A DNA stretch of 64,000 nt from a virus (lineage: Duplodnaviria > Heunggongvirae > Uroviricota > Caudoviricetes), in IMG/VR virus record IMGVR_UViG_3300048925_000677, positions 53,569-117,568 of that record; one strand, given 5' to 3'. Position 1 is the first letter of the stretch, and each line of letters begins with the position of its first letter. The translations under genes were made by a program, and so were the position numbers. Under the pieces are notes generated by a model, which did not search any database, had not been told where the DNA came from, and saw only the letters and a list, made by a program, of their open reading frames with translations. Positions 24,700 to 44,890 of this stretch are shown here, piece after piece.

Positions 24700-25572
24700 T
24701 CACCGCGACCTGACCATGGCCTCGTACATCGCCGTGTAGACGGGCACGATGGTGGTGGCGCACCCCACGCGGTTGTGGCCAGGGTGCGAGTCGGTTGTGA
24801 GGATGTGCTCGTAGTAGTTGCTCAGGTTGGTTGCGGCTCCCGAGAAGATCCCGTGCGTCACCCACAGCGCCAGTTGAGATTTCGGCACCCCGGCCGCCTG
24901 GGCGAGCAAGGCGAACGTCCCGCCACCATCGCAGATGTCATCCACCACGAGGTGTCGCTTTGTGGGATCGAGTTTCGGCAGGTCGTAGGACCGCAACGCC
25001 CCCGTCTCGAAGTTGCGCTCCTTGCGGGCGACGATCAGTGGCACATTCAGCTTGTCGGCGACCACGCTAGCCCGGTCAACGGCGCCCTTGTCTGGCGCGA
25101 TCACTGTGTCGAACCTGACCGACCCAACCTCGCCATCGGTGACTGACCTCAAACTCTTGAGCGCTCGCTCGATGAGTGGCCAGACGTCAACGTTGACGAA
25201 GTTCTCCACCCGCTTGGGTATCGCCGGGGAGTGAGGATCGAGAACGTACACCCGTGATGCGCCAAGGGCATTGATGAGCCTGGCGTATGCCTGCCCACCG
25301 CAGGGGATGCCGCGATCCGCGCGGGCCGCCGGAAGGTATGGCAGCATCAGTCGAAATTCGGTACCCGCCTGGGCGGCAGCCTGAGCAAGAAGGGCTGCCG
25401 CGACAAGGTCGGCCGGATCTGCGCCGCGGACATCGGCGAAGAACAATCCCTGCCACGTGGCCTCTGCGTACGTGTTCTTGAGGTCATACTCTCCGCCGGG
25501 GAACTGGAATACCTCAGCAGCCGCGTCGATAGTTCCCGTGTGAGACGAGTAGTACTTGAGGTGAACGGTCAT
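24700..25572 (-). CDS. ribose-phosphate pyrophosphokinase-like protein (Prs-like; candidate Adps of NARP1)
   Basis: ORF 24700..25911 trimmed to ATG 25572 (MTVHLKYY..). PRPP-binding loop VVDDICDGGGT. Confidence 0.65.
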   Translation of the reverse strand: MTVHLKYYSSHTGTIDAAAEVFQFPGGEYDLKNTYAEATWQGLFFADVRGADPADLVAAALLAQAAAQAGTEFRLMLPYLPAARADRGIPCGGQAYARLINALGASRVYVLDPHSPAIPKRVENFVNVDVWPLIERALKSLRSVTDGEVGSVRFDTVIAPDKGAVDRASVVADKLNVPLIVARKERNFETGALRSYDLPKLDPTKRHLVVDDICDGGGTFALLAQAAGVPKSQLALWVTHGIFSGAATNLSNYYEHILTTDSHPGHNRVGCATTIVPVYTAMYEAMVRSR

Positions 25573-26876
25573 GCCGCGCTTTCCAGGTCGATCTCCTCGG
25601 CGTCGAGGAGTTTGGTTTCGTGGAGCAGGAACGCCGGCGCCTTGGCCTTGAGGATCGTCGGGACAACGCCGTCCTGGCGGATGCAGATACCCTCGTCGAC
25701 AGTCTTCTTGTCCGACAGTGGAACTGGGGACTCGACGAAAATGGGGCCATGGGTCTGCATCTCTGCGTATCGCTTGTCCATGTACAAATTGACCATGGCC
25801 TCGACGTCGAGGCTGTTGCCAGCCGGATGCGGATGAACACCCGGGACTCGGGACAACTCTGGCGCCCACTTGAGACCCCGGGCCGTGCAGAATTCCTTCA
25901 CGCCGTCCCATGACAGGTCGGCCAAAGTGCCCTGCGCGTTGATGGTGGCCACCCGGTAGACGTACAACTCCGCCGAGCCCTTGGGCTGGTCATAGGTGTA
26001 GCCCTTCTGGATCGGCCCGCCGTCCGGGGTCCAGCCGATCAGCTCCCCGTAAACGATGTAGCCGTCCGGAATGAGGTCTGCGATCTTGCGGCCGTATTCC
26101 GTCCAGATGTCGGTGGCGTAGTAGTGCGCCTGGCGGGGGTTGTTGACGTCCTTGATCACCTTGCGGCTGCCGAAGACCGCGTCGTAGACGTGATCGGCCG
26201 TCGGGAACCAGCGGTTCAGGAACTTCTCGACGCGGCCCTTCTCGCGCAGGCAAGGCACCCGGCCGACGCGGATTGACGTCCCGTGCAGCTTCTGGGTGAC
26301 GATGGCCTCGCGGGTATCGGCGAGTAGATGCTTGTTGCGCCAGTAGTTGTCGGTCGAGATGTGCTCGGGGAACTGCTTGGTGGTGACCCGCTTGAACGCC
26401 TTCTCCAGCTTGTTCGCCGGCGAGTTCGGGTTGCCCTTGATCGGCAGCTCGTACTTGCGGCAGATCTCGTGCCCGTTGACGGTGTCGAAGGTGTCGCCCT
26501 CACGGAGGGTCGCCGGATCGATTCCGGTGAAAGCCAGCGATTCCAGCGGCATCAGCAGCGCGTCGGAGCGGTGGCCGCGGAGCTTGATCGCGCGGATGCG
26601 GCGGTTCTTCTCCAGGTAGCCGGCCTCGGTCTTGTCGGCGTTCAGCTCCGAGTCGCGGTACAGGTTGTTCTGCGACGTGAACGCTTCGGACAGTTGGGTT
26701 TCCGCGGTGAAGGCGACCTTGAGATCTCCGACCGCTACTCCGTCGCGCTGGGTCAAGGACTGGTGCCCGAGGATCGGGACGCCGACGAGGTTGTCGAGGC
26801 CGTTCAGGTCGACAGTCACTGGGACCTTCACGATCTGGGCGGCATAGTTGGCGTTCTTGGGTGCGTCAAAAGTCAT
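25569..26876 (-). CDS. ATP-dependent RNA ligase (Rnl2-like nucleotidyltransferase)
   Basis: 435 aa; motif I QKLHGTS (compare T4 Rnl2 KIHGTN), YGELIGW, ILKAKAP (motif V). Confidence 0.6.
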   Translation of the reverse strand: MTFDAPKNANYAAQIVKVPVTVDLNGLDNLVGVPILGHQSLTQRDGVAVGDLKVAFTAETQLSEAFTSQNNLYRDSELNADKTEAGYLEKNRRIRAIKLRGHRSDALLMPLESLAFTGIDPATLREGDTFDTVNGHEICRKYELPIKGNPNSPANKLEKAFKRVTTKQFPEHISTDNYWRNKHLLADTREAIVTQKLHGTSIRVGRVPCLREKGRVEKFLNRWFPTADHVYDAVFGSRKVIKDVNNPRQAHYYATDIWTEYGRKIADLIPDGYIVYGELIGWTPDGGPIQKGYTYDQPKGSAELYVYRVATINAQGTLADLSWDGVKEFCTARGLKWAPELSRVPGVHPHPAGNSLDVEAMVNLYMDKRYAEMQTHGPIFVESPVPLSDKKTVDEGICIRQDGVVPTILKAKAPAFLLHETKLLDAEEIDLESAA

Positions 26877-26879
26877 GCG

Positions 26880-27077
26880 CTACGTCCTCATTGATTCACG
26901 GATGGTGACGCCGTGGCGTCCCGCCCAGTCGCGGATGTTGTCAATGGCCGTTTCCAGCTCCATGTAGGCGTCGTCCAAGGTGACCTGGTAGTCCAGGCGT
27001 TCGATGTATCCCTTGGCTGTGTTGATATGGCCTATGGCCTGCCGAAGGGACACCTCAACGACGTCGGAGTTGCTCAT
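26880..27077 (-). CDS. hypothetical protein
   Basis: ORF 26880..27311 trimmed to ATG 27077 (MSNSDVVEVSL..), ATGA-coupled. Confidence 0.4.
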   Translation of the reverse strand: MSNSDVVEVSLRQAIGHINTAKGYIERLDYQVTLDDAYMELETAIDNIRDWAGRHGVTIRESMRT

Positions 27078-27337
27078 GCCAGCTCCAGGTAGTTCGGATC
27101 GGTAATGCCAAGGGCTTTCAGGTCTTCGACGGTCAATTGCCGCTCGTGCCCCGTGGCGAGGTGCTTGTTCCAGTAGTCGGGGTGCTCGTGATAGCCAGCG
27201 CCCTGCTTGCGGATGAGGGTTGAGACCTTGCGATTCACGATGTTGGCGCCGGCGGATTCCCAGCACATGAACTCGCCCTGCCAGCAGGCGGCATTCAGGC
27301 ATTTCGAGCAAACGGTGATAGTTGGGTCATAGATCAT
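27074..27337 (-). CDS. hypothetical protein (zinc-binding?)
   Basis: 87 aa; CSKCLNAACWQGEFMCWE. Confidence 0.45.
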   Translation of the reverse strand: MIYDPTITVCSKCLNAACWQGEFMCWESAGANIVNRKVSTLIRKQGAGYHEHPDYWNKHLATGHERQLTVEDLKALGITDPNYLELA

Positions 27338-27549
27338 TCGTCCTCCAGATCTTCTTGGAGGAGTTCAATAGCCCGAGTGAGCGCGTCCTTACGCGTCGAG
27401 CGCGTCTCGGTGTAGTCAGCACTCTCGCCCAGTGCCGGGTAAAGCACCGTGTAATCGACGTCCCACGAGATATGGGTCGCAACCGGCCTCTGTTCACCTG
27501 CCGCGCGGACATGGGTGAAGTCTTGACTGATTCGCAACGCAGTGATCAC
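27334..27549 (-). CDS. hypothetical protein
   Basis: ORF 27334..27642 trimmed to GTG 27549 (GTGA overlap). Confidence 0.35.
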   Translation of the reverse strand: MITALRISQDFTHVRAAGEQRPVATHISWDVDYTVLYPALGESADYTETRSTRKDALTRAIELLQEDLEDE

Positions 27550-27734
27550 ACACAACCTCCGTATGGGCTCCACATCCCGTGGACGCCTTCGTATCTGGGA
27601 TATCCGCAGCCTTGACAGAGGTGGCCGTACGCCCACACCCACTCGAAATCGGCCCAGGCGAAGCTGCCCAACTCGGCCGATGGATTGATACGCGTGTCGA
27701 TCAGGGTGTCGAGATAGATCGGCGTATCAGCCAA
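27546..27734 (-). CDS. hypothetical protein
   Basis: 62-aa ORF. Confidence 0.35.
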   Translation of the reverse strand: MADTPIYLDTLIDTRINPSAELGSFAWADFEWVWAYGHLCQGCGYPRYEGVHGMWSPYGGCV

Positions 27735-27936
27735 TCGTCAACTCCCACCGCAGCGACGACCCGTCGGAAAAGGTGACAACGGCAAGCTGTCGCCTTATCA
27801 CCTCTTCTTCGATTCCGAAGGTGGCGCCTGGGAAATTCTGCTTCAGCCACTCCTCGGCGGTACCGTGAAACAGCGCATGGTGAAATTCCCCGAGTTGGAG
27901 CTTGGCCTGAAAAGCTTGCTGCTGGCCGAACATCAC
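27727..27936 (-). CDS. hypothetical protein
   Basis: 69-aa ORF. Confidence 0.4.
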   Translation of the reverse strand: MMFGQQQAFQAKLQLGEFHHALFHGTAEEWLKQNFPGATFGIEEEVIRRQLAVVTFSDGSSLRWELTIG

Positions 27937-28400
27937 GCCTTGGCCTGCTCGGCGCCGACAATCACCAGCACGCTCTTGCGCTCCAGCAACGCTCGGATGT
28001 AGTCCTCACCCTCGGGGACCACGACGGCCTGTGCCTTGAGTCGCGCTGCGAGCCACTCGGTCTTGGTATTCAGCCCGGACTTAGTGGCCACCAGATCAGC
28101 GGACGCGGGCAAAGGCAGCAACTGACCCTCGTGGGCCATCTCGTGGACGCCCTTGCGCTCCTTGCCGCCCTCCTTGACGTGCTCGACCAGGATGGTCTTG
28201 GCGCCGGCGAGCGTGCGCATGAAGGTCCGCAACGAGGAGTTCGTTGAGTAGAGGTGCATCACCTTGACGTCGTCGTAGCGCGCCAGGGCGGGTGCGAACC
28301 GGGCGACCGCCTGGGCGATCAGTTCCTCGCGGCGCTGGTTCTCCTCCAGGATGATGCGGTCAGCCTCGTCGTTGTCGACGGCGAACATGGGCTCGGTCAT
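27933..28400 (-). CDS. hypothetical protein
   Basis: ORF 27933..28430 trimmed to ATG 28400 (MTEPMFAVDND..), ATGA-coupled. Confidence 0.45.
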   Translation of the reverse strand: MTEPMFAVDNDEADRIILEENQRREELIAQAVARFAPALARYDDVKVMHLYSTNSSLRTFMRTLAGAKTILVEHVKEGGKERKGVHEMAHEGQLLPLPASADLVATKSGLNTKTEWLAARLKAQAVVVPEGEDYIRALLERKSVLVIVGAEQAKA

Positions 28401-28702
28401 TCGGCCACCGGCTTGTAGACGATGGGCCATGTGGAGAGGTACTCGAACGACTCAGGGGAACTGCATCGACCCGAAGTGAGTCGATGGACGAACCACTGGT
28501 CGTTGACGCCATCGCTCACCTTGACTGCGACATTGCCGTCATCGTCAGCGCGCACCGTCCCAATGGGGTCTGGCGCACGAAGTTCGTTCAAGCAGTCGAT
28601 GAACCCTCGGGCGAGTTCTTCCCAGCCGAGGCCATCCGTCTCGTAGAGGTAATCACCGAGCTTTTCGGCCTCGTCATTGGTCAGCTCGATAGCATCGAAC
28701 AT
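28397..28702 (-). CDS. hypothetical acidic protein
   Basis: ORF 28397..28762 trimmed to ATG 28702 (MFDAIELTNDE..). Confidence 0.4.
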   Translation of the reverse strand: MFDAIELTNDEAEKLGDYLYETDGLGWEELARGFIDCLNELRAPDPIGTVRADDDGNVAVKVSDGVNDQWFVHRLTSGRCSSPESFEYLSTWPIVYKPVAE

Positions 28703-28805
28703 GGTTAATTCACCAATCGTTGAATTTCGGGGGTCGCAGTCCTTCCCAAGAGGGCTGGCCAAAGCGTCTTGGCCCCCCGTGGACCGGCGTCAGCCGGTCG
28801 CCCAG

Positions 28806-29207
28806 CTACACCGCGACGGACCCCCACGGATCTTCAGAATCCGGGGGTTTGTATTGACTGGATGTGCGACTGTCAGGAAACTGTTTAGCGTTACCCTCAG
28901 GAAACTTTTTGGGGCTCAAATGCGTCGGGATTCGAAGCTCGAACACCGCCGCGATCCGGCCCCTCTCGCCCTTGGTTCCGCGCGAGGTTTCCCACAACCA
29001 GCCGGCGGCCTTGAGTTGCTTGACCGCCTTGCTGACGGTGCCATTGCTCATGCGGCATTCCTCGGCGAGTCTGCGATAACCCGGGTGGGCGTTGGACCCG
29101 TCCTTGGAGGCGTAGGTCAGCAAAGTGACCAGCACGCGATACTCCGCGTGGGTGAGCGACGCGTGGCGCAGTAGCTGTAGGTACTTCAGCTTGTTGAACT
29201 GCGCCAC
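28806..29207 (-). CDS. winged-helix DNA-binding protein (replication-initiator/MarR-like)
   Basis: 133 aa; YRVLVTLLTYASKDG..RLAEECRMSNGTVSKAVKQLKAAGWL. Directly upstream of the primase-helicase gene. Confidence 0.55.
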   Translation of the reverse strand: MAQFNKLKYLQLLRHASLTHAEYRVLVTLLTYASKDGSNAHPGYRRLAEECRMSNGTVSKAVKQLKAAGWLWETSRGTKGERGRIAAVFELRIPTHLSPKKFPEGNAKQFPDSRTSSQYKPPDSEDPWGSVAV

Positions 29208-29219
29208 AAGTCACCCCCC

Positions 29220-30584
29220 CTAGAACATGCCCTCGGCCATCGGGGGCGGAGGCTCTTCGAGGCGGCGCTCCATCTCGAACCAGGTCGGATTGCCGAACCG
29301 ATCCTCGACACGCTTGAGCACCCCGCGGGCGACCATCGCGTCGAGCTTGCGCTCAGCCTTCTTCTTCTCGCTGCCGTTGGGACGCTTGCAGTCGTAGATC
29401 CACTGAGCGGCGGTGTCGGCGTCAAGCCCCGCCTGACCGGCGTTGCGCACGAGGACCAACAGATCGATCTTGCGAACCGAGAAGCTGCCGCTATCGGGGT
29501 CGAGAAGAATCTTCCATGGCCCGACCTCGTTGGCCGGCGTCTTGGCATGCCGGAAACGCACCTCCAGGTCGCCAGGCTCGCCGGACAATGTCACGATGGA
29601 CCCGGCGCCGGAGGTGATCCACGTTGATCCGTAGACCTCGGAGACGCTGCCGTTGCTCCCCGCGTCCTGGTTGGGCTTCTTGATGTGGTGCAGTTCGCAG
29701 ATGTTGCAGCCGATAGCCAACAGGCTCTGGCGGGCCCGGTTGTACAGGGCGCCAACCTCATCGGTGGAGAGCCCCACCGCAGCGTCCTTGAGCGAGTCGA
29801 CGTACACCACGCCCGCTCCGACGGCCTCGGCCATCCTTGCGAGCAGGGTGGGGTCGACGGCCATGTCGTTGATCGGCGGCCCCGGGCGAATGAGGAGGCG
29901 ACCCTTGGCGGCGTCCATCTCCTCGGCTGAGAACTGTCGCCGCATCGACCGGCGCAACTGCCGCGGCCGGTCCATCGCCAGGTACAGGATCGGTTTGTCG
30001 ACCTTGGCGACAGGGAGGCCGAGCACCTCGTCCTGGAACCCAAGCTGACCCCGCACAAGCTGGCCGGCCAGGGTGGACTTGCCCAATCCCTGTCCGCCGG
30101 CGAGCAGGAACGCCTCGCCTTCGGCCCAGAGGATCTCGTCGCCCTTGCCCCATAGCTCGACGACGGTGTCGTCAGCCTTGAACAGCCACTCCCCCGCGTC
30201 GACGGGCGGGTACTCGCCGAATGGGCTCGATTCCCGGGGCTCAGTGGTCGCTGGAGCGGTTTTCTCGGGTTCCGAGAGGGTAGACACCCGAGCGGGCTCT
30301 GGAGACTTCTCAGGGACCATTCTCGGGCCTTGCGCATCCGCGAAGGCGAAGCCCGAGTCAATCGTGCCCTCGACCATGTGGATGCCGTCCTCGCCGAGGT
30401 GGCCGTTCGACTCGCACGCGTCGATCAGCTTCTGACGAAGCGTGCCGCGGTCAATATCCAGCCGGCCCAGTTTGATGGCGGCGTTGTTCAGCGCCTCGTT
30501 GCGCGAACCCTTGCTGAGGCTCGCTAGTTCATCGAGTTCCTTGTCCATTGCCGCCTTGACGTAGTTGTCGGACGGCTCGACCAT
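29220..30584 (-). CDS. primase C-terminal (PriCT-like) + RepA/DnaB-like AAA_25 helicase
   Basis: 454 aa; Walker A AGGQGLGKST, Walker B VVYVDSL, RecA-like core. N-terminal helical domain fits PriCT. Confidence 0.65.
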   Translation of the reverse strand: MVEPSDNYVKAAMDKELDELASLSKGSRNEALNNAAIKLGRLDIDRGTLRQKLIDACESNGHLGEDGIHMVEGTIDSGFAFADAQGPRMVPEKSPEPARVSTLSEPEKTAPATTEPRESSPFGEYPPVDAGEWLFKADDTVVELWGKGDEILWAEGEAFLLAGGQGLGKSTLAGQLVRGQLGFQDEVLGLPVAKVDKPILYLAMDRPRQLRRSMRRQFSAEEMDAAKGRLLIRPGPPINDMAVDPTLLARMAEAVGAGVVYVDSLKDAAVGLSTDEVGALYNRARQSLLAIGCNICELHHIKKPNQDAGSNGSVSEVYGSTWITSGAGSIVTLSGEPGDLEVRFRHAKTPANEVGPWKILLDPDSGSFSVRKIDLLVLVRNAGQAGLDADTAAQWIYDCKRPNGSEKKKAERKLDAMVARGVLKRVEDRFGNPTWFEMERRLEEPPPPMAEGMF

Positions 30585-30631
30585 TGGGCCGGTGTACGTC
30601 GGGCGCTCCGGCTCTTTACCCGGGATGTTTT

Positions 30632-30949: not shown

Positions 30950-31140
30950 TGATACCTCGGATCGTTGTAGTGAACGTCTTCACACAGCCACCCCTGGGTG
31001 GTGAAATCCCAGCTAGGAGGCTCCGCGTCGACGGGGTTATAACCCTCCGTCACCGCCTCATTGAGGCAGGGCCCCTGGTTCCCCCAGTAGACCCGGCCGT
31101 CGCACGTGAACTCGTAGCGGTGAAGTTCCTTGACGCCCAA
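30946..31140 (-). CDS. hypothetical protein
   Basis: 64-aa ORF. Confidence 0.4.
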   Translation of the reverse strand: MGVKELHRYEFTCDGRVYWGNQGPCLNEAVTEGYNPVDAEPPSWDFTTQGWLCEDVHYNDPRYQ

Positions 31141-32802: not shown

Positions 32803-32808
32803 CGCGCC

Positions 32809-33048
32809 TCAGTCATCGAGGCCCAGGGCGGCCTCGGCCTCGTCGTAGACCTCTTCCATCCGGTCGATGAACGCGCGCAGGGCCGGCTCGTTGCCATCCT
32901 CCAGGGTGAACTGCTTCTCGTCGCTGCAGACGTAGAAGGCCGCAGCGAACAGAATCAGCTCCTCCACCGGCGTGGTCATCATCTCGGCGACTGCTTCTTT
33001 GACGTTCACTGTGCTCCCATGATTTTGGGCGAAGGCCGAACGACCCAC
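32809..33048 (-). CDS. hypothetical protein
   Basis: 79-aa ORF. Confidence 0.4.
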   Translation of the reverse strand: MGRSAFAQNHGSTVNVKEAVAEMMTTPVEELILFAAAFYVCSDEKQFTLEDGNEPALRAFIDRMEEVYDEAEAALGLDD

Positions 33049-33668
33049 GCATATCTCTTGAAATCGATCTGCGACGGGGCGCCGACCACATATCCGCCTT
33101 CGCCGCGGTAGTCGATGCCCTTGCGGACATTGGCGCGGTTACCGTTGCCGGTCTTCTCGACGTAGATGTGGAAACCCCTTGGAGTGGACACCTTCCCATG
33201 AACCTCGGGGATGACGTCGTCGCCCAACTCCCGCAGCGACGCGATGCCATCGGGCCCGTCGATGTCGATGACATCGAAGTTGATCCCGGTGGGCAGGCCG
33301 ATGTTGTACTCCGGATTCTGCGTCCACCACGCCCGAACCTGGTCGACATCCGTCGTGGCGTCGTGCAGGCCGTTTCCGCCGTCGCGCTTGCTGATCGCCG
33401 GCTGCTTCGAGTTCGGGTACAGCGGGAACACCGGCCAGCCGCGTTTGGCGTACCAAAGGGCCGAGGAGCCTAGAGAAGCCACCTTCGGCTGATTCACTAG
33501 CTTCTCCAGGCGGTCGGCCTCTGCATGATCTTCGCGGATGATCGCGTCGACGAACGCACGTGATAGCAGCTCGGCGTCCGTCTGTGGGCAGGTCGGGTGG
33601 GACTCCTGACCCACGTATGTAACCTGCAGGGGCTCTTTGCATTGCGCGCAGGTGGTGTAGGTCAGCAA
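33006..33668 (-). CDS. bifunctional DNA primase/polymerase (PrimPol N-terminal domain) with zinc ribbon
   Basis: 220 aa; CAQCKEP..CPQ; ALWYAKRGWPVFPL..NIGLPTGINFDVIDIDG Prim-Pol signature. Confidence 0.7.
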   Translation of the reverse strand: MLTYTTCAQCKEPLQVTYVGQESHPTCPQTDAELLSRAFVDAIIREDHAEADRLEKLVNQPKVASLGSSALWYAKRGWPVFPLYPNSKQPAISKRDGGNGLHDATTDVDQVRAWWTQNPEYNIGLPTGINFDVIDIDGPDGIASLRELGDDVIPEVHGKVSTPRGFHIYVEKTGNGNRANVRKGIDYRGEGGYVVGAPSQIDFKRYAWVVRPSPKIMGAQ

Positions 33669-36119: not shown

Positions 36120-36428
36120 TCACGCGTAGAACTTCTCGGGGCTCGTCGGGTGCTTGTCCGGGCTGTACACAACCTGCCATCCGTCGACCCGGTCATTCGA
36201 GTAGATGACACCCCTCGGCGTGTAGTCGGTGTTCGGGATGTGCAGCCAGCCTTCTGGGGTCTTGATTGCCATGTCGGCATGCGCGTACGCGCGCAGGATT
36301 GTTCCGTCGCGGCGTACCGGCGTCGGGGCGGTCACCAGGTCCAGAATGTCCTGAACTTGACGCCCAGTAAGGCCGACCTGTTGAGCGATGCGGTTGGCCT
36401 TGTTGGTAACTGTCACTGCATTCCCCAA
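36120..36428 (-). CDS. hypothetical protein
   Basis: 102-aa ORF. Confidence 0.45.
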   Translation of the reverse strand: MGNAVTVTNKANRIAQQVGLTGRQVQDILDLVTAPTPVRRDGTILRAYAHADMAIKTPEGWLHIPNTDYTPRGVIYSNDRVDGWQVVYSPDKHPTSPEKFYA

Positions 36429-37279
36429 TCTCGGGTGTGAATGTCGATCAACCAGTCGTTGATCCGGTCATAATCGGGTTCGTTTGGAAGCGAGGTCTCA
36501 AATTCAGCCTCTTGAATCCTCCTGCGCCACAGCGCAATCTCTTCCAACGCGTCGTCAATCGTGTACTCGCCGTTGCGCACCGCCATGAGGAACTCTCGCG
36601 GGCCATCGGCCATTGGAAGAGTCATCGCGCCGGTCGTGAGCAACTCGTAGCCCTGGATGAGGAGTCGGATCGTGTGCATCCCGGCCTTCGTGTCCCAGCC
36701 GTGCTTAGCGATCAACTCGGGCCGATTGGTCCGCGGCGCCTTTTTACCGGTGAACTGAGCTTCCATGCCGTTCGCGTAGCCGATGTGGCGGGCCGCCAGC
36801 CTCCGCGACAGGAACATCTGACGGTTATCCCGCAACCCGATCTCATCGGGGTGGAACAACAGGCGAGTGAACAACAAGGTCAGCACCGTCGGATTGCCGT
36901 CGGCGGCCAGCTTGGCGTATTTGCGGAGGCTGTAGAACGTGCCCTCAGTGTCGCCGGCGGACGCCTTGACACCCTCCTCGCGGCCAGAGTCCTTCAATGC
37001 GCCCGTGGCCTTGTCGATCCCGATCACGGCCTCAGCAGAGTCGAGGTAGATTCCGATGAAGTCGTGATCGGAGGTGGGGACGTTCAGCCCGTGGGCGAAT
37101 GAGCCCACTTCGCCGATGATGACCGGCTTGACATCTTGTCTCAGTGCATGAATTCCTAACCGACCGCGATGATCCCGGCCGAGTACTCGTCGGCGGTCAT
37201 CCTGCAGTCGCAGTTGGTGCAGAAGATGGTGTCCGACCCGGCGTACTGGGCCAGGTTGCGGGTATCGCAGCCCGGGCAT
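36413..37279 (-). CDS. Pol-beta-superfamily nucleotidyltransferase
   Basis: GEVGSFAHGLNVPTSDHDFIGIY (GS..DxD) motif. Start uncertain: the only canonical start, ATG 37279, overlaps the upstream gene by ~120 nt. The antisense ORF 36437..37102 is judged spurious. Confidence 0.55.
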   Translation of the reverse strand: MPGLRYPQPGPVRRVGHHLLHQLRLQDDRRRVLGRDHRGRLGIHALRQDVKPVIIGEVGSFAHGLNVPTSDHDFIGIYLDSAEAVIGIDKATGALKDSGREEGVKASAGDTEGTFYSLRKYAKLAADGNPTVLTLLFTRLLFHPDEIGLRDNRQMFLSRRLAARHIGYANGMEAQFTGKKAPRTNRPELIAKHGWDTKAGMHTIRLLIQGYELLTTGAMTLPMADGPREFLMAVRNGEYTIDDALEEIALWRRRIQEAEFETSLPNEPDYDRINDWLIDIHTRDWGMQ

Positions 37280-38877: not shown

Positions 38878-38881
38878 CGAC

Positions 38882-39684: not shown

Positions 39685-39956
39685 TCCATGCCTCCCAGCG
39701 CTTCGATGACTTTGCGGGCGCCGACAACACGGGCGCACGCCGCGGCGAGAGCGTTCATGTTGCCGCCGGACCCCGCGAAGATGTCGACCTCTCGGCCCAT
39801 CTCCTGCTCCAACTCCAGGAGGATCGCCTTGGCGGCCTCAACTCGGGAGTCGCGATGCTCGACTTCGTGAATCAGATCTCGTAGCAAGATGCTCAAGTCG
39901 TCGGAAACCGTGCCTCCGTCGCGGACCATCTGGGCGATTTCGAGAAGGTCGCTCAT
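39681..39956 (-). CDS. hypothetical protein
   Basis: 91-aa ORF, ATGA-coupled. Confidence 0.45.
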   Translation of the reverse strand: MSDLLEIAQMVRDGGTVSDDLSILLRDLIHEVEHRDSRVEAAKAILLELEQEMGREVDIFAGSGGNMNALAAACARVVGARKVIEALGGME

Positions 39957-40279
39957 TGGTGAATCCCCTCATGCCCCTTGAGTAACTTGCAGGTCTTGCC
40001 GTAGGCCTTGAACTTGCACAGGTCGGCCGCGGCCACCCAGTCCTGGTCGATGAACTCGACCGTTGGGACGCCGTCGTTGAAGTGGATCTTCGCGGCGCGC
40101 GCCCCGTACCCGGCCTTCTTGAACCGGCCCCACTGGGCCTTCGCCTTACCCGGAGTGTTGTACATGCGCGCCGGCGGCTTGTAGGCGTACGAGCCGGTGT
40201 AGCTGCCGGTGTCGAGGGTTCCGTCGGCCTTCAGCTTGAAGACGACGAACAGGCCCTCACCCTGCGGGTTGTAATGCAT
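39953..40279 (-). CDS. hypothetical protein
   Basis: 108-aa ORF. Confidence 0.45.
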   Translation of the reverse strand: MHYNPQGEGLFVVFKLKADGTLDTGSYTGSYAYKPPARMYNTPGKAKAQWGRFKKAGYGARAAKIHFNDGVPTVEFIDQDWVAAADLCKFKAYGKTCKLLKGHEGIHQ

Positions 40280-40908
40280 CAGGTACCCGCCATCAGCTCG
40301 TGGTAGTTGAACTTGGTCCCGAGGGCGTCGATGATCGACACTTGATCACCCTTCAGTCCCAGTACACGGCCGTCGTAAATACGGGCATACTTCTGCACGG
40401 TCGTCTCGTCGAGCACGAAAGCCCTTCCGAGGTCGGTGATCCGCCACCAGCCGGCCTTGCCGCCGTCCGGCCGAGGTTCTGGAACCTCCTCGATCAAGCC
40501 CCACCACGACAGTTGACTGAACTCGTGGGTCTCGCTCTTTACCAACGACGCACTGTGCGCGAAACTCTGCCCGACCAACCGAAACTGCTTGATCAGGCCG
40601 CGGGCCATCGGTGAGGTGATCTTGCGCCGGTACACCTTGGCGAACTGGCTGCAGCAGGGGCACGGGGCGCCGTCGTCAACGCGCTTACGGAGCGCGGCCT
40701 TCGCCTGCTCCAGGGTGATGGTCACGCGTACCACTCCCGTTCGCCGGCGGCGTTGTGCAGATTGCCCTGGTGCGTGCCGTGGATTCTTGTGTTCAGTGGG
40801 ACCGACGTGACGTACGTGCCCTCCACATGCACAACGACGTGCGGGTGCTTCCGGTCGCGGTCGAGGTAGACGATCTGGCCGCGGTGTGGTGCCGCCATCA
40901 GAAATCAC
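40279..40908 (-). CDS. hypothetical protein (start uncertain)
   Basis: 209-aa ORF. The Arg/Pro-rich N-terminus looks non-coding; the C-terminal 150 aa are convincing. Confidence 0.4.
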   Translation of the reverse strand: MISDGGTTPRPDRLPRPRPEAPARRCACGGHVRHVGPTEHKNPRHAPGQSAQRRRRTGVVRVTITLEQAKAALRKRVDDGAPCPCCSQFAKVYRRKITSPMARGLIKQFRLVGQSFAHSASLVKSETHEFSQLSWWGLIEEVPEPRPDGGKAGWWRITDLGRAFVLDETTVQKYARIYDGRVLGLKGDQVSIIDALGTKFNYHELMAGT

Positions 40909-41830
40909 CTTCCGCGACCTGGGCGCAGTTCAGTCCGAGTTGACGCCACATGTCCACGACCTGATCTCGGTCGTCGATCACGACCCGCACGTTGTACTTG
41001 CCGCGGATGTACTCGTTGAACAGGTGGTACTTCACCTGGTAGTCGGGAAGCTTGTTCCCGCTGGCGTCCTTGGCGTCCGCTGGCCGCATGATGAGCCGGT
41101 CGTAGGGAATGTTGTGCATGTCGAGCCAGCGCTCAGTGTCCACCCGACAGGTGTCATCGCGACCCGACATGAAGATGATGTCGACCGGGGCCTCGCCGTC
41201 GGCGCGCGGAGTGACGGTGTGGAAGATTGTCCGGACCAGCCACGCGATGTTCTCGTGGACGCTGTCCTGCAACACCTTCGAGTAGTCGAAGTGTGAGCGG
41301 ACACCGTCATGGTTGGCGACGGTGCCGTCAATATCGACGATCACGCAGTCGGGCAGGTCGTCCATGTACGGGACCGGCTCGATGATGAACGGCTCCGCGG
41401 TGATCACCGGACGCTTGGCGCGCTTGGCCTGCTGCTCGATGACCTTGTCGCCGACGTACCGGCCGCCGTCGAGCATCCGCTGGTGGTCGCGCTGGCGGCA
41501 GACCGCAGGGTCTTCGATGACGTCCACGACCTCGAACTCCACCGCCAGGCGGGTAGCCTCCTTGGCCCACTTGCGGACGTACGGAGCGTGCAGGTGAGTG
41601 GCATCCACCACGACAGATACCCCAGCCTTCAGGAACGCGAAGACCGAAGCCTGCTCGGCGATGGTCACGCGGTCCTCGTCGACCTTCTTGCCCGTCCAGT
41701 AGGAGCCCAGGAGTTGCTTGCGCAGGTCGTCCCGGCACACCACCACGGCGTCGTTCTCGTCGGCGATCTCGCGAGCCCGGGTGGATTTGCCCGACCCTGA
41801 GAGTCCGCGCATGACAAAGAGTTTGGTCAT
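40898..41830 (-). CDS. pnkp: polynucleotide kinase-phosphatase (P-loop kinase + HAD phosphatase)
   Basis: N-terminal GLSGSGKST Walker A; C-terminal VIVDIDGTV DxDGT HAD motif and later VVIDDRD. Confidence 0.75.
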   Translation of the reverse strand: MTKLFVMRGLSGSGKSTRAREIADENDAVVVCRDDLRKQLLGSYWTGKKVDEDRVTIAEQASVFAFLKAGVSVVVDATHLHAPYVRKWAKEATRLAVEFEVVDVIEDPAVCRQRDHQRMLDGGRYVGDKVIEQQAKRAKRPVITAEPFIIEPVPYMDDLPDCVIVDIDGTVANHDGVRSHFDYSKVLQDSVHENIAWLVRTIFHTVTPRADGEAPVDIIFMSGRDDTCRVDTERWLDMHNIPYDRLIMRPADAKDASGNKLPDYQVKYHLFNEYIRGKYNVRVVIDDRDQVVDMWRQLGLNCAQVAEGDF

Positions 41831-42177
41831 CGTGCATCTCCCACGTTCGGGTCGGTGCAGTCCGGGAATCGCTCCCCGATATTGCAGCGCTCATAGTCGA
41901 GTTGGGTAACCTCGCGCCATCCCGTCTTGTCGCGGTCGTCGCTGCGGGTGTTCTGCAGCTTCAATCGCCACGAATCCGGCCATGGGATGATTTGCGCCGA
42001 CGTCGTGAAGCAGGTGGAAGGATTACCTGAGCAAGTCGTGCTGCCCGGGATGATCTGAATCCACGCCGGGGTGTACTCGCCGTCGATCACGTAGCCCTCA
42101 ACGGGCGGCTTGGCGCAGCCCACCAGCGCGAGTCCGGCGATCATCGTTATGGCGAGTCGCTTCATGTTGAGATCCAC
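41827..42177 (-). CDS. secreted lipoprotein
   Basis: Signal peptide with lipobox LALVGC|A. Confidence 0.55.
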   Translation of the reverse strand: MDLNMKRLAITMIAGLALVGCAKPPVEGYVIDGEYTPAWIQIIPGSTTCSGNPSTCFTTSAQIIPWPDSWRLKLQNTRSDDRDKTGWREVTQLDYERCNIGERFPDCTDPNVGDAR

Positions 42178-42836
42178 TGATCGATGAGTGCGTAGTTGGC
42201 CGGCAGCGACATTGGCGTGCGATCCCGGAGGATGAACGTCCCGTCCTTCTCACGAGGCTGTAAATGGGCCCAGTTGACGCCGACGCCGTGCAGCATGTCG
42301 TGCATGTCCCGCTGCTTTTTGCCTTGCAACTCTTTGTGAGAGAAGTGCGCGCCGGCCAACATCTGAAGGCTGTTGCGGTGCCAGTCCTGCTGGCGCCAGA
42401 TAAAGACATTCGGAGCGTCATCGCGAGGGACGTTGAACGCCCTAGCGTCGAACGTCGCTAGGCGTCCCTGGTCAACCAGGCCCGGCATCCGCCGGTTGAA
42501 GTGCGCGGTAAACAGGCTCGCCGACAGGCTGACAACCTTATTCAACTCGTAGCCGAACCAGCCCTGTGTATCAAGGTCGTCGTAATCGGTTAGCAGGAAT
42601 GTCGCCTCGTCGCTCTGGGTGTAGGCGAGCTTGAAGCCCTGCATGTCTCGCGAGGTGTCTATCGCAGCACCAACCATCGCGCCCATCAGAACGCTGTCGA
42701 ACGGGCGTCTGAAGCCCTTGGTGTAAGTGTGGAACGCCCGTCCGTCGACGCGAATGAGTAACGGGGACCGTGGAGTTAGGTGATGGTTGGATACCGATTC
42801 GTAGCGCTTGATTCGGTCGCCAAGACTGTCAGGCAT
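42162..42836 (-). CDS. Thg1-like protein (tRNA-His guanylyltransferase family, 3'-5' polymerase)
   Basis: ORF trimmed to ATG 42836 (MPDSLGDRIKRYE..). LLIRVDGRAFHTYTKGF motif. Confidence 0.6.
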   Translation of the reverse strand: MPDSLGDRIKRYESVSNHHLTPRSPLLIRVDGRAFHTYTKGFRRPFDSVLMGAMVGAAIDTSRDMQGFKLAYTQSDEATFLLTDYDDLDTQGWFGYELNKVVSLSASLFTAHFNRRMPGLVDQGRLATFDARAFNVPRDDAPNVFIWRQQDWHRNSLQMLAGAHFSHKELQGKKQRDMHDMLHGVGVNWAHLQPREKDGTFILRDRTPMSLPANYALIDQWIST

Positions 42837-42837
42837 G

Positions 42838-43149
42838 TCAGATCTTTCGGTAGCGGACCCAATCTCCGACTGCGGAGAACGTGTCGAGGCAATAGGCGCA
42901 CTCGATGTAGCCGCGGACCGCGAGGATGCGCTCAAGGACGGCCATGAGTCGGTTGTGACACTTCGTGCACTTGAACTGAGCCGGAATCTTCGGCTTGGTT
43001 GGACATTGATGCGAAAATGCCAGTACCCACTCGGCAGATGCCCCGCACGGCGGGATGTCAAGGTGGGCAACCCCTTCGCAGGGCAACTCCCGCTCCCACA
43101 TGGCCTCTAGGTCGGCGACGGGGACGCGCTCGATTAGCGGCGCGGTCAT
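42838..43149 (-). CDS. Cys-rich protein, paralog 1
   Basis: ORF trimmed to ATG 43149 (MTAPLIERVPVADLEAMWERELPCEG..). Confidence 0.45.
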   Translation of the reverse strand: MTAPLIERVPVADLEAMWERELPCEGVAHLDIPPCGASAEWVLAFSHQCPTKPKIPAQFKCTKCHNRLMAVLERILAVRGYIECAYCLDTFSAVGDWVRYRKI

Positions 43150-43430
43150 AGCGCTCGGTAGCATTCGTGAATCGGAGTATCTCCGCACGCCTCGCACGAA
43201 AGGCTCATGGTGCCTTTGTCGATGTGGGCCCGCAGCCACCGGGAGTAGCACTCGAAGCACTTGAAGTCCTCCGGCCCCGGGTCGCACGGGCACCGCAAGA
43301 TCATGGTGGCCGGCGCGTTATCCGGACAGGGGCGCTTCTCGGGGTAAATGTTTCCCCCGCAGGGCAATTCAATGGCGAACATCGCCTCAAGGTCGGCGAC
43401 GATATCGCGCTCAAGCAGTGGTGCTGACAT
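43146..43430 (-). CDS. Cys-rich protein, paralog 2
   Basis: MSAPLLERDIVADLEAMFAIELPCGG..: clear paralog of the downstream gene. Confidence 0.5.
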   Translation of the reverse strand: MSAPLLERDIVADLEAMFAIELPCGGNIYPEKRPCPDNAPATMILRCPCDPGPEDFKCFECYSRWLRAHIDKGTMSLSCEACGDTPIHECYRAL

Positions 43431-43698
43431 CCGGCGCCCCCTTCATGATTCGGCGGTAACCGCGGATGTACATCTGCCCGGGGTGCTCCTCTTCCCACTT
43501 CGTCATGCGACGTTCATGAGTGGCGAAATCTCGGGAGACGCTGAACAGAGCCGCGATAGCGGTTACCAGCCAGATGGTGCCGAGGAGGTCAATCACTTCA
43601 GCCCCTGCAGGTAGCGCGAGTACAGGACCGTGGTCCCGGCGGTGGATACGTTCATCGACCACTCTTTCGGGGACTCCACCTGCACTACGTGGTGGCAC
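43411..43698 (-). CDS. hypothetical membrane protein
   Basis: 95-aa ORF; TM segment IWLVTAIAALF. Confidence 0.35.
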   Translation of the reverse strand: MPPRSAGGVPERVVDERIHRRDHGPVLALPAGAEVIDLLGTIWLVTAIAALFSVSRDFATHERRMTKWEEEHPGQMYIRGYRRIMKGAPDVSTTA

Positions 43699-44066
43699 CT
43701 GGCCAGAACCTCGGGCGGGAGTCCGTGATCTTCGGCGCCCATTAAGTACAGGGCGTTCTCGGGATGCCAGAACCTCGACAGCGGCACCGCCCGCTCATCC
43801 AGCTCCACCCCGATCAACTGGCACCCAGTGGGCAGGTGCCCGATCAGGGCGTCGATGTCGTCGTAGTGGATCAGGGGAATGCGGTTCGGTGTATTCGACG
43901 TGTCCGAAGCCTGGTGGGTGTACCGGCGGCCGATGGTTGCGATGAAGGCCGCGTCATAGAGGAACGCCGAGCGCCACAATGTGCCAACGTTGCTCTCGTG
44001 CTTGGGGTGCCAGGCGGCGACCCCGTAGTACCCCCGGGCACTACCCTGCAGACTGCGCCTCGTCAT
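43593..44066 (-). CDS. SpoU/TrmH-family RNA 2'-O-methyltransferase
   Basis: 157 aa; YGVAAWHPKHESNVGTLWRSA, LYLMGAEDHGLP, SMNVSTAGTTVLY SPOUT motifs. Confidence 0.7.
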   Translation of the reverse strand: MTRRSLQGSARGYYGVAAWHPKHESNVGTLWRSAFLYDAAFIATIGRRYTHQASDTSNTPNRIPLIHYDDIDALIGHLPTGCQLIGVELDERAVPLSRFWHPENALYLMGAEDHGLPPEVLARCHHVVQVESPKEWSMNVSTAGTTVLYSRYLQGLK

Positions 44067-44172
44067 CGCGCTCCAGTTCGTTGATGTCGACGATGATTTC
44101 GTCGATACGAGTCATGCTCAGCGTCTTGCGGATCTCTTCACGCTGGTCCGCGGTCAGGTCCCGATGACCCAT
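44041..44172 (-). CDS. hypothetical small protein
   Basis: ORF 44041..44307 trimmed to ATG 44172. Confidence 0.3.
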   Translation of the reverse strand: MGHRDLTADQREEIRKTLSMTRIDEIIVDINELERDDEAQSAG

Positions 44173-44396
44173 CAGTGGAACCCGAACGGCAGTCCAGCGG
44201 ACACTGGTCGGCGCCCGCCGAAGTACCACTGACTGTCGAAGTTCGAGTAGCCGCCGCTGCCCGCTCGGACCAAGGTCTTGGCCGACTGGGATACCGCCTC
44301 GTGCCACGTGAGGTAGGCGCCGTGGAATGAGCCGTCAGGGCGCCACGTGATCCAACGGCCGTGACGCTTGCGGACCTTCCACCTCAGCGCCGCCAC
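44172..44396 (-). CDS. hypothetical protein
   Basis: 74-aa ORF. Confidence 0.4.
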   Translation of the reverse strand: MAALRWKVRKRHGRWITWRPDGSFHGAYLTWHEAVSQSAKTLVRAGSGGYSNFDSQWYFGGRRPVSAGLPFGFH

Positions 44397-44890
44397 GAGC
44401 GCACCTCGCGCTCAAACGCGCGGTTGCACAGACACGCCGGCGACCGCCTGGCACGGATCTCCGTGACGATGTCATCGCCGTTGTCGAAGTCGCCATTGAG
44501 GAACAGCGCCCGGGCGGCGATCAGCGAGGAGCGGTTCAGGCCCGCCTGGCAGTGCACTAGCGTGGGGCCGTCCTTGCGGTACTTGTTGACCCGCTCGGCG
44601 ATGAAGTCGTTCGCCTCGAAACCCTGATCCTCGGAGTCGAACATCTCAATGTAGTCACTGTTCTTCACGCCGGGGTGGTTCTGGTATTTCTCCCACGGGT
44701 ACAGCGAGACGACGTTGACGATGAAATCAGGTAACACGAGGCCGTTCTGGCAGCCGCCCTGCCAGAGATTCGGCGCCAACTCACTGATGAACGGAACATC
44801 GAACGGGGTGTTGCCATGTACGGCGACTCCCCGCATCCGCTTGACGGTCGGGTCGAAGTCGATGGCGAACGCGGTGTGGTCAATGCTCAC
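44384..44890 (-). CDS. dual-specificity (Tyr/Ser-Thr) protein phosphatase
   Basis: 168 aa; VHCQAGLNRSS CX5R P-loop. Confidence 0.7.
   Translation of the reverse strand: MSIDHTAFAIDFDPTVKRMRGVAVHGNTPFDVPFISELAPNLWQGGCQNGLVLPDFIVNVVSLYPWEKYQNHPGVKNSDYIEMFDSEDQGFEANDFIAERVNKYRKDGPTLVHCQAGLNRSSLIAARALFLNGDFDNGDDIVTEIRARRSPACLCNRAFEREVRSWRR

Follow-up and report, generated by a model that had tools for sequence, protein, structure and literature searches.

What would a phage do with a kinase-phosphatase, a ligase, two nucleotidyltransferases, a methyltransferase and two further phosphoesterases that may all act on RNA? This question is raised by a 64-kb stretch of DNA (64,000 nucleotides, here called the window) of the virus record IMGVR_UViG_3300048925_000677, part of a contig of ~123 kb. 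The initial annotation read seven minus-strand open reading frames (ORFs) of the window as one dispersed system that heals, seals and maintains tRNA ends. We found all seven ORFs in place, each in the proposed superfamily and with its motifs intact. Profile hidden Markov model (HMM) searches for each family scored above the Pfam threshold, except for the Cys-based phosphatase (29.7 vs 33.5 bits). We observed gene identities, intact active sites, synteny, gene coupling and statistical neighborhood links, as set out below. The explanation that we consider likely is a phage-encoded, expanded RNA damage-reversal complement that consists of an RNA-repair core and an accessory layer. It is a mosaic toolkit and not a single fixed operon. 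It is also an unusually complete version of an RNA-repair toolkit already known from phages, not a new kind of system. What is new is that a polynucleotide kinase-phosphatase (Pnkp), an Rnl5-type RNA ligase, a Thg1-like protein (TLP), the nucleotidyltransferase RlaP, a small SPOUT methyltransferase (SpoU/TrmH family; SpoU below) and a Cys-based phosphatase of the dual-specificity type (DSP) have accumulated in one genome.

Pnkp matched both Pfam AAA_33 (2.6e-24) and HAD_PNKP (1.7e-43) above cutoff, together with 149 bits, and it aligned over its full length with Pnkp1 (4XRP, 3e-31), the closest solved relative, and with T4 Pnkp (1LTQ, 4e-16). This agrees with the initial annotation of a Pnkp-type enzyme. 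An N-terminal P-loop kinase is followed by a C-terminal HAD (DxDxT) phosphatase, as in the T4 type, with the catalytic motifs GLSGSGKST, RDD, DIDGT and DDRD all intact. The protein is 55 to 63% identical to the “polynucleotide kinase” of cluster J mycobacteriophages. Kinase and phosphatase activity on RNA ends was reported for the orthologs from phages Omega and Cjw1 by Zhu 2004, as that work is cited in PMC3706429. For Pnkp and for the other proteins of the window, the enzymatic activities given here are predictions carried over from characterized homologs.

The ligase had been called Rnl2-like, and this name did not hold. It matched Pfam RNA_ligase PF09414 (45 bits, amino acids 190 to 402) and phrog_968 (3.5e-122), with a weak PHA02142 OB match at the N-terminus. 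K196 in the motif QKLHGTS, E278, K410 and K412 are invariant in 21 homologs. Direct and profile searches of the PDB sequences with the ligase returned no match. A Foldseek search with the AlphaFold2 (AF2) model (pLDDT 82) found the Naegleria gruberi RNA ligase NgrRnl (6vt3/5cot) over the full length (E value of 2e-13, TM of 0.67 to 0.69), T4 Rnl2 over the nucleotidyltransferase (NTase) domain only (1e-6, ~275 columns) and Rnl1 at 6e-3. A weak match to DraRnl (DRB0094) crosses the domain junction (amino acids 70 to 204), and the protein falls below the cutoff of the NCBIfam equivalog for DraRnl, TIGR02306 (25.5 bits vs 151). We rejected the Rnl2 identity since the NTase domain is C-terminal, behind the OB module, and since the fold search favors NgrRnl. 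The protein has the N-terminal OB-like module and the C-terminal NTase with motifs I, III, IV and V that mark Rnl5. We take it to be a distinct actinophage branch (phrog_968) of the Rnl5-type ligases. It is 68% identical to the Omega ligase.

TLP matched Pfam Thg1 PF04446 with 98 bits (5e-28), as the initial annotation had it. Its best PDB match was the Bacillus thuringiensis TLP (BtTLP; 4KGK, 2.6e-52), with Thg1 at 1e-10 or weaker, and the alignment with BtTLP shows ~50% identity by eye. The catalytic carboxylates D31 and D76-E77 are conserved. HINNLYN, which serves eukaryotic Thg1 in recognition of the tRNA-His anticodon, is absent, and WRQQDWHRNSLQ stands in its place. The protein thus has every mark of a bacterial TLP, namely, the Thg1 palm, the three carboxylates, a nearer relation to BtTLP and the lack of HINNLYN. 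BtTLP shows template-dependent 3'-5' addition and prefers 5'-truncated tRNAs of several kinds (PMC3061083). Kalah2 gp116 is 72% identical.

TLP, a small lipoprotein ORF, Pnkp and the next ORF overlap from stop to start by 16, 4 and 11 nt, and TLP-ORF-Pnkp is the only tightly coupled unit among the components. From 36 to 46.5 kb, the minus strand showed no terminator-like site. Because of these overlaps and the lack of such a site, the proximal genes are probably cotranscribed; the ligase follows 14 kb downstream in the same orientation. Nothing that we found points to an RNA function of the lipoprotein ORF, which is translationally coupled between TLP and Pnkp and seems a stranger in this company; in phage WXIN, a homolog lies just upstream of Pnkp.

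The Pol-beta enzyme had been described as possibly CCA- or A-adding. Its nucleotidyltransferase fold was confirmed, but the enzyme is RlaP, the RNA-ligase-associated family (PF10127; 80.6 bits vs a cutoff of 23, 1.9e-22), with the motif GS60...D71-H-D73 intact. We rejected a CCA-adding identity because only PF10127 matched and the PolyA_pol head domain (PF01743) did not. Homologs align from residue 47 to 49 of the long ORF, and the metagenome gene call has 231 amino acids, so that translation probably begins at 37132 (V50) or 37108 (V58) and not at 37279. Pseudomonas RlaP extends damaged RNA 3'-OH ends by one or two NMPs, and heavily damaged tRNA does not regain aminoacylation without it (PMC12776372, a 2025 preprint). 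Unlike the arrangement that gave the family its name, RlaP is not ligase-adjacent here but ~9.5 kb from the ligase and ~3.8 kb from Pnkp. It is inserted between conserved backbone genes and is absent at the syntenic position in phages Constella, Kalah2 and WXIN and in the IMG/VR locus L010. On other contigs it pairs with TLP, SpoU and DSP.

Features of the window discussed in the text, with repair candidates first and neighboring genes after them
Feature	Coordinates	Strand	Basis
Pnkp, bifunctional 5'-kinase/3'-phosphatase, T4/Pnkp1 type	40898-41830	-	Pfam AAA_33 and HAD_PNKP, PDB, motifs
ATP-dependent RNA ligase, Rnl5 (DraRnl/NgrRnl) architecture	25569-26876	-	Pfam, phrog_968, AF2/Foldseek
Bacterial-type TLP, predicted 3'-5' template-dependent nucleotidyltransferase	42162-42836	-	Pfam Thg1, PDB, catalytic residues
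RlaP (RNA-ligase-associated Pol-beta nucleotidyltransferase), predicted 3'-end nucleotide adder	36413-37132 (long ORF to 37279)	-	Pfam PF10127
Minimal SPOUT (SpoU/TrmH-family) RNA 2'-O-methyltransferase, 157 amino acids	43593-44066	-	Pfam SpoU_methylase, three motifs
Cys-based (PTP/DSP-fold) phosphatase, phrog_10650	44384-44890	-	CX5R motif, PHROG
Calcineurin-like metallophosphoesterase, tentative member (possible 2',3'-cyclic phosphodiesterase/3'-phosphatase)	16408-17169	-	Pfam, metal motifs
Small lipoprotein ORF between TLP and Pnkp, 116 amino acids	41827-42177	-	MKRLAITMIAGLALVGC lipobox, phrog_4392
Two tandem paralogous Cys-rich (zinc-ribbon-like) small ORFs between SpoU and TLP	43146-43430 and 42838-43149	-	Translations, 4-nt overlap
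ORF269, 3-His cupin, 208 amino acids; stop overlaps DSP start	44887-45513	-	Confident prediction, invariant H58, H60 and H137
Prim-Pol (PF09250)	33006-33668		Sits with DnaB-like helicase
Ku beta-barrel fused to Lsr2 DNA-binding domain	8981-9913	+	Like cluster J phages
FtsK-like translocase	11057-12361	+	Like cluster J phages
NamPT/NAPRTase	23034-24506	-	
Prs-like phosphoribosyltransferase	24700-25572	-	

In the pathway that we propose, Pnkp would turn the 5'-OH and 2',3'-cyclic phosphate or 3'-phosphate ends left by host ribotoxins into 5'-phosphate and 3'-OH ends. TLP would start from the 5'-phosphate made by Pnkp and replace lost 5' nucleotides by 3'-5' addition, templated by the opposite strand of the tRNA stem, and RlaP would put back one or two nucleotides where a 3'-OH end has been trimmed. 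The Rnl5-type ligase would seal the 3'-OH/5'-phosphate nick held in a duplex or stem. In the accessory layer, the SPOUT enzyme would 2'-O-methylate a ribose of the tRNA (or rRNA) and block transesterifying RNases there, in a functional parallel to Hen1, while the Cys-phosphatase would trim an RNA terminal phosphate. The repair genes and the replication genes would be expressed together, as parts of a single long array that runs leftward. We infer the substrates, the order of the steps, the roles of SpoU, DSP and the metallophosphoesterase (MPE), and the antidefense purpose. The role in end healing, sealing and maintenance of RNA, most likely tRNA, that the initial annotation had put forward is nevertheless the best reading of the families and of the neighborhoods of TLP, RlaP and DSP. 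A bolder version strikes us as rather unlikely. In it, the SPOUT enzyme is a nonhomologous counterpart of Hen1 that methylates the vulnerable tRNA ribose, ahead of the attack or at the mended junction, and the protein tyrosine phosphatase (PTP)-fold enzyme acts on RNA terminal phosphates together with RtcB, Pnkp and phage tRNA arrays; in the accessible literature, neither family had been tied to RNA repair. If this version is true, the phage, with TLP and RlaP, would rebuild both ends of a tRNA, reseal it and immunize it, which would be the most complete tRNA restoration pathway yet seen in a mid-sized phage of a temperate lineage.

Gene neighborhoods bear directly on whether these families work together. 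We surveyed IMG/VR relatives of TLP, DSP and SpoU and the 10 kb to each side of them, using HMMs made from window and reference phage proteins together with ARAGORN. The panel did not include Rnl1, Rnl2, Rnl3 or CCA-enzyme models, so the counts are lower bounds, and its MPE HMM, built from four phage MPEs including that of the window, is broad. TLP had at least 572 viral relatives, from which 80 loci in 55 lineages (at 70% identity) were examined. In 18 of the 55 lineages, Pnkp, an Rnl5-type ligase, RtcB, LigT or RlaP lay within 10 kb and always on the same strand. By neighbor, MPE was found in 12 lineages, RlaP in 10, Pnkp in 7 and the Rnl5-type ligase in 6. Direct adjacency was seen for TLP-Pnkp (10 to 60 nt), TLP-RlaP (21 to 34 nt) and TLP-MPE (9 nt); TLP adjoins Pnkp in Kalah2-type phages and in loci L010 and L027. 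Judging from these gene orders, we place TLP and RlaP in one group with Pnkp and the ligase.

Some loci from this survey are worth recording in their own right. One IMG/VR TLP lineage has a TLP-MPE-RlaP cluster with gaps of ~0.5 and 2.6 kb on eight contigs (L047, L059, L061-L064, L067 and L079). In L066/L068, TLP and MPE are 9 nt apart, with RtcB and NamPT nearby. Bacillus Tsarbombavirus phages (TsarBomba L009, 6995-8432) carry TLP, one further gene and then a short Rossmann class I SAM-methyltransferase. We rejected a conserved TLP-SPOUT pair, as this methyltransferase near TLP is Rossmann class I and not SPOUT.

The six families are present in 4.3%, 0.75%, 1.3%, 0.32%, 0.08% and <0.01% of the 50,697 phage records deposited. 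The 1.3% is the share of RlaP, which compares with 10 of the 55 TLP lineages, and the 0.75% is that of this ligase family. Because the families are so rare, their co-residence is not chance. Mycobacterium phage records account for 299 with Pnkp and 296 with this ligase. The relatives carry different subsets. In cluster J phages of the Kalah2 type, TLP is followed by Pnkp with two small ORFs in between, and the whole Kalah2 genome contains no RlaP, DSP, SpoU or NamPT/NAD-salvage genes. WXIN has TrmH, four small ORFs and then Pnkp, as well as NamPT and Pth2, and lacks TLP. Thus, some deposited cluster J phages have TLP-Pnkp and one (WXIN) has TrmH-Pnkp. In the window, unlike in the relatives examined, where the two occur separately, TLP and SpoU both lie upstream of Pnkp, and the window has DSP and RlaP in addition. 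In IMG/VR, contig 2825252539_000001 has SpoU followed by TLP-Pnkp at a distance of 10 nt, with DSP ~35 kb away, and on contig 2731957755_000005, SpoU-RlaP lies ~10 kb from Pnkp-TLP. On the L011/L101 contig, with SpoU-RlaP ~10 kb from Pnkp-TLP, all four genes fall within ~13 kb.

The backbone around these genes allowed us to place the phage. The window has a G+C content of 62%, and nearly all genes between ~12.5 kb and 60.5 kb are on the minus strand. A DNA-level match to deposited phages was confined to the ligase and the primase/helicase region (~74% identity, Omegavirus [cluster J] and cluster E mycobacteriophages), but at the protein level, synteny with Constella, Kalah2 and WXIN is clear. 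The common order is RecB-like exonuclease, Pnkp, endonuclease VII, WhiB, a helix-turn-helix protein, Prim-Pol, DnaB-like helicase, RNA ligase, MazG-like enzyme and MPE, followed by FtsK and Ku on the opposite strand. The ligase protein is 100% identical to a JGI metagenome protein whose longest contig measures 123 kb, and a Logan assembly contains the same phage. We assign the window to an uncultivated, distant cluster J-like (Omegavirus-related) actinophage. By analogy with its temperate cluster J relatives, the phage is probably temperate.

This backbone also invites a different use for the core enzymes. Since the window encodes a Ku-Lsr2 fusion and a Prim-Pol, Pnkp and the ligase could act with them in a DNA-end repair resembling nonhomologous end joining, or in genome circularization via ribonucleotide-patched nicks at breaks or short cohesive ends. 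T4-type Pnkp enzymes use DNA as well as RNA. The fold of the ligase matches NgrRnl and DraRnl, nick sealers that need an RNA 3'-OH strand and accept a DNA 5'-phosphate strand (work of the Shuman laboratory). However, the PF09250 Prim-Pol is grouped with the DnaB-like helicase, in the position of a primase for replication, and the nearest solved relative of Pnkp belongs to a dedicated RNA repair complex. The kinase and ligase co-occur in clusters J, E and L, whereas Ku is not known from clusters E and L. In addition, TLP, RlaP and SpoU, which act on RNA, are physically tied to Pnkp here and elsewhere. We regard a DNA-end role as very improbable and keep RNA ends as the substrate of the proposed complement.

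The accessory layer required closer inspection. SpoU matched Pfam SpoU_methylase PF00588 (63.4 bits vs a cutoff of 29.7, 3.2e-17), in keeping with its initial annotation as a SpoU/TrmH methyltransferase. Motifs 1 to 3 are intact, namely, N26-x-G-x-x-x-R32 with the catalytic Arg, GAEDHGLP and SMNVS, and 30 columns are invariant across 23 homologs. Its best PDB matches are weak and mixed (TARBP1 methyltransferase domain, 6e-5; TrmH, 0.016; TrmL-like, 0.02), and no NCBIfam equivalog for TrmH, TrmL, TrmJ or RlmB was reached (best, 22.9 bits; cutoffs, 160 to 227). The protein is not of the Hen1 type, as it has a SPOUT domain only, with neither the Rossmann fold, the ligase-activating domain nor the Pnkp operon. 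The TrmH-family gene of WXIN (68% identity) is the only homolog that we found in a named deposited phage, and a second match, weak and partial, comes from a metagenomic phage record that carries no annotation. In all, the family counts 672 members. We rejected SpoU as a cellular gene because all three “bacterial” copies examined are prophage-borne. A public metagenome gene call for SpoU (128 amino acids) starts late and loses motif 1 with the catalytic Arg; the homologs back the 157-amino-acid ORF.

A single-protein pattern scan of IMG/VR gave no SpoU, and it was an alignment-based scan that gave the 69 viral loci (44 lineages) surveyed. A core repair gene was near in 6 lineages, and the number rises to 12 with phosphatases counted, the neighbors being MPE, RlaP, Pnkp, RtcB or DSP; the broad MPE HMM matched in 6 of the 44. 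Two lineages and a Mycobacterium fortuitum-type prophage have an MPE that overlaps the start of SpoU, a Nocardia prophage and L101 have RlaP one or two genes away from SpoU, and both the window and L010 have SpoU grouped with TLP-Pnkp. These gene orders suggest a loose link between SpoU and RNA repair. The two Cys-rich small ORFs that lie between SpoU and TLP have copies after SpoU in WXIN and L095, which is 1 of the 69 SpoU loci overall. We rejected them as a general SpoU partner on this count; the pattern suggests bystanders or lineage-specific partners.

The second accessory enzyme, DSP, was the one below its Pfam cutoff (DSPc, 6.6e-7). Because it matches phrog_10650 (5.7e-74) and has the CX5R motif, we consider its membership confirmed, and the initial annotation as a dual-specificity phosphatase stands. 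The loop HC113QAGLNR119S, an HCX5R(S/T) signature, is invariant in four homologs. As for a specific similarity to RNA 5'-phosphatases of the BVP/PIR1/DUSP11 type, searches of the PDB sequences gave 62 weak matches, all to proteins described as generic protein PTPs or DSPs. From its genomic context, DSP may act on an RNA terminal phosphate. In phage Rey (L008, 5780-7501), a homolog with 59% identity adjoins RtcB after an array of 20 tRNA genes and a tmRNA gene; RtcB and DSP are 4 nt apart by ORF-based scoring and contiguous in the annotation. In the survey (38 loci, 26 lineages), 9 lineages had DSP within 10 kb of arrays of 5 to 26 tRNA genes and 5 had RtcB. Other neighbors were MPE (3 lineages), RlaP (2), Pnkp (2), SpoU (1, at 128 nt) and Pth2 (1). 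Altogether, 12 of the 26 lineages have DSP next to a tRNA array, RtcB or another repair gene. On this genomic evidence, the family has a genuine tRNA/RNA-repair context, and we found no description of its association with tRNA arrays or RtcB in the accessible literature. In cluster M-like phages such as Rey, the phrog_10650 phosphatase directly follows RtcB and 20-tRNA arrays.

The start of DSP is overlapped by ORF269, a cupin resembling thiol dioxygenases and KdgF. Its homologs are found both in phages (cluster M and Gordonia) and in the genomes of Mycobacterium, Rhodococcus and Mesorhizobium. We rejected it as an AlkB/JmjC-type RNA repair oxygenase, as it is a generic 3-His cupin whose cluster M homologs are 30 kb from DSP.

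MPE, finally, matched Pfam Metallophos PF00149 (44.8 bits, 2.4e-11) and has all five metal motifs (GDTHG, GDFG, GNHE, SHD and GHYH). It is 64% identical to Constella gp171 and Kalah2 gp172, which are in syntenic position. While the identity given in the initial annotation was correct, membership in the repair set is tentative, since the RNA link is a family-level association seen elsewhere.

These data leave room for a narrower explanation, in which only the core (Pnkp and the ligase, and probably TLP and RlaP) repairs RNA, while SpoU, DSP and MPE are unrelated mosaic cargo. The cargo could modify rRNA or tRNA to tune translation, dephosphorylate phosphoproteins or kinase-based defenses, or process nucleotides or DNA ends, and it would lie close to the core simply because accessory genes are commonly packed into the early region of actinophages. 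Several observations fit this explanation and weigh against the expanded complement. Across Kalah2, WXIN, Constella and L010, the presence of any one accessory gene is independent of that of the rest, and therefore none is obligatory for the others. No panel gene lies within 10 kb in 32 of the 44 SpoU lineages, and 14 of the 26 DSP lineages have neither panel genes nor tRNA arrays nearby. DSP could be a protein phosphatase, as are its PDB matches, and the target nucleotide of SpoU is not assignable from its NCBIfam or PDB matches. In every cluster J relative examined, MPE keeps its distant syntenic position, and unrelated lipoprotein, cupin and Cys-rich ORFs are interspersed. The repair genes are scattered over 28 kb and interleaved with genes for replication and recombination and with unknown ones; from Pnkp, it is 14 kb to the ligase, ~4 kb to RlaP and 24 kb to MPE. 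The proposal of one system, which would consist of contiguous and co-inherited components, failed on this spread and on the independent presence and absence of accessory genes in the nearest relatives. Three further points count against the expanded complement as well. The ligase fold resembles nick-sealing ligases and not T4 Rnl1, the known sealer of anticodon-loop breaks. The window is without a tRNA gene, although cluster J phages have one in the syntenic region. The enrichments are rough, as they come from narrow, home-made HMMs and compare different databases (IMG/VR vs a GenBank-phage baseline).

On the other hand, mere packing does not readily explain why DSP adjoins RtcB and tRNA arrays in several lineages and SpoU in another, or why SpoU overlaps MPE, or is one or two genes from RlaP/Pnkp, in unrelated prophages. 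SpoU, TLP and Pnkp also cluster both in the window and in L010, and they do so together with RlaP on the L011/L101 contig. Such recurrent pairings across different backbones are hard to ascribe to packing alone. We hold the core-only explanation to be possible but doubtful, and we retain the complement of core plus accessory layer as our preferred reading.

The initial annotation had also linked the enzymes to tRNA-like RNAs in this DNA, and these were not borne out. Over the whole 64 kb, no tRNA or tRNA-like RNA was found by ARAGORN at default settings or by Rfam at the gathering score or at an E value of ≤1. A relaxed ARAGORN run gave 142 candidates, which we discarded as obviously spurious. 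The tRNA-Gly of cluster J has no homolog in the window, its syntenic slot included. A palindromic hairpin in a noncoding gap (57472-57504) matched Rfam tpke11 on both strands below threshold (28 vs 43 bits), and it may be a terminator or an operator.

This result bears on whether the enzymes serve in the maturation or upkeep of RNAs of the phage itself, such as a tRNA outside the window or processed transcripts, and do not reverse defense damage. For example, TLP could add a 5' nucleotide, RlaP could complete the 3' end and SpoU could modify a phage tRNA. Cluster J relatives do carry tRNA-Gly, and 20 or more tRNAs are found in the cluster M phages that have the same DSP family. tRNA genes are near 19 of the 80 TLP loci and in 9 of the 26 DSP lineages, and the visible sequence is 64 kb of a contig about twice as long. 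However, the window has no tRNA even in the cluster J slot, and BtTLP-type enzymes prefer truncated, i.e., damaged, tRNAs. Ordinary bacterial tRNA maturation is not known to need Pnkp or a ligase. We judge a role in the phage's own RNAs to be improbable, and reversal of inflicted RNA damage remains the reading that we prefer. A prophage-encoded defense was also considered and rejected, as no component matched any PADLOC defense-system model.

How much of this complement has been seen before? The initial annotation held the combination to be undescribed, which is largely wrong for the core. Pope 2013 (PMC3706429) proposed that Omega gp136 (Pnk) and gp162 (RNA ligase), with phage tRNAs, repair RNA against host defenses, and noted that the two genes are unlinked yet apparently coevolved and are restricted to clusters J, E and L. 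Our counts for Mycobacterium phage records, nearly equal for Pnkp and the ligase, agree with this. Anantharaman, Iyer and Aravind 2010 (PMC2904730) found polynucleotide kinase to be the most persistent neighbor of bacterial Thg1, with RNA ligase sometimes present; they proposed that the kinase makes the 5'-phosphate substrate of Thg1 and suggested that viral Thg1 serves in RNA repair against host defenses. The jumbo-phage RNA-repair repertoire of Iyer 2021 (PMC7824862) includes RNA ligases, polynucleotide kinase, phosphoesterases, RlaP, CCA enzyme, Thg1, Pth2 and NAD salvage.

Compared with the Pnkp and ligase of clusters J, E and L (Omega gp136 and gp162; Cjw1), the window has orthologous genes, a similarly dispersed layout, a syntenic backbone and the same proposed role. 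It differs in the addition of RlaP, the SPOUT methyltransferase and the Cys-phosphatase and in having no tRNA gene in the 64 kb. T4, which reverses PrrC damage with Pnkp and Rnl1, shares a homologous Pnkp and the logic of healing both ends and then sealing. In contrast to T4, the window ligase is of the Rnl5 type, and TLP, RlaP, SPOUT and DSP have no counterpart in the classical T4 pathway, although T4 has an RlaP homolog, NrdC.11. The closest parallel for the accessory methyltransferase is the bacterial “repair with immunity” of Pnkp1-Rnl-Hen1 and Pnkp-Hen1, in which 2'-O-methylation by Hen1 renders the repaired tRNA resistant to colicin D. There too, a kinase-phosphatase is combined with a separate ATP-dependent ligase and a 2'-O-methyltransferase. 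The window methyltransferase, however, is SPOUT and not the Rossmann fold of Hen1, and the repair genes of the window form no operon.

Bacterial operons of Thg1-like proteins with polynucleotide kinase (and RNA ligase or Macro) also couple TLP to a kinase able to supply the 5'-phosphate, whereas the window has a phage context, a bifunctional T4-type Pnkp and no Macro domain. Jumbo-phage inventories and RtcB-RlaP-RtcA operons (Burroughs and Aravind 2016; Iyer 2021; Carruthers 2025) resemble the window in joining a ligase, nucleotidyltransferases (RlaP and Thg1), end-modifying kinases/phosphatases and nearby NAD salvage, but here the genome is mid-sized and RlaP is not adjacent to the ligase. 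SPOUT and PTP-fold enzymes were not mentioned in the phage RNA-repair literature that we searched, a scope outside which Burroughs and Aravind 2016 and Pope 2014 (cluster M) fall. The most interesting leads are the actinophage SPOUT methyltransferase family and the Cys-phosphatase family associated with tRNA arrays and RtcB.

Mycobacteria and their relatives have very large arsenals of toxins that target tRNA or rRNA, including VapC, MazF and others (PMC10264068), and what is known of how their phages cope comes mainly from the tRNAs that the phages encode. Nearly all known classes of RNA-end repair activity come together in this genome, which adds two candidate classes, the SPOUT methylase and the Cys-phosphatase. 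If these accessory enzymes act on tRNA, “repair with immunity” would extend from bacteria to phages, and the enzymes would be compact tools for RNA-end engineering. If they do not, this would be a well-documented but ordinary RNA-repair phage of the cluster J type.

A few neighboring genes deserve mention. A NAD-salvage pair lies directly downstream of the RNA ligase, with the Prs-like gene overlapping the ligase stop by 4 nt and NamPT coming next. The pair probably serves NAD+ reconstitution against NAD-depleting defenses. In Constella and WXIN, the same pair is near Pnkp and endonuclease VII, and in the M. fortuitum-type prophage, NamPT is 5 kb from MPE-SpoU. The protein best conserved against WXIN (81% identity) is encoded by a 701-amino-acid ORF on the minus strand (52206-54311) with no Pfam or PADLOC match. 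Finally, a minus-strand trio of nucleotide metabolism genes (19018-21347) encodes an RNase H-like 3'-5' exonuclease (19018-19797), a protein with a dATP/dGTP diphosphohydrolase N-domain (19808-20686) and a DUF4406 protein (20973-21347), which may hint at manipulation of the dNTP pool.

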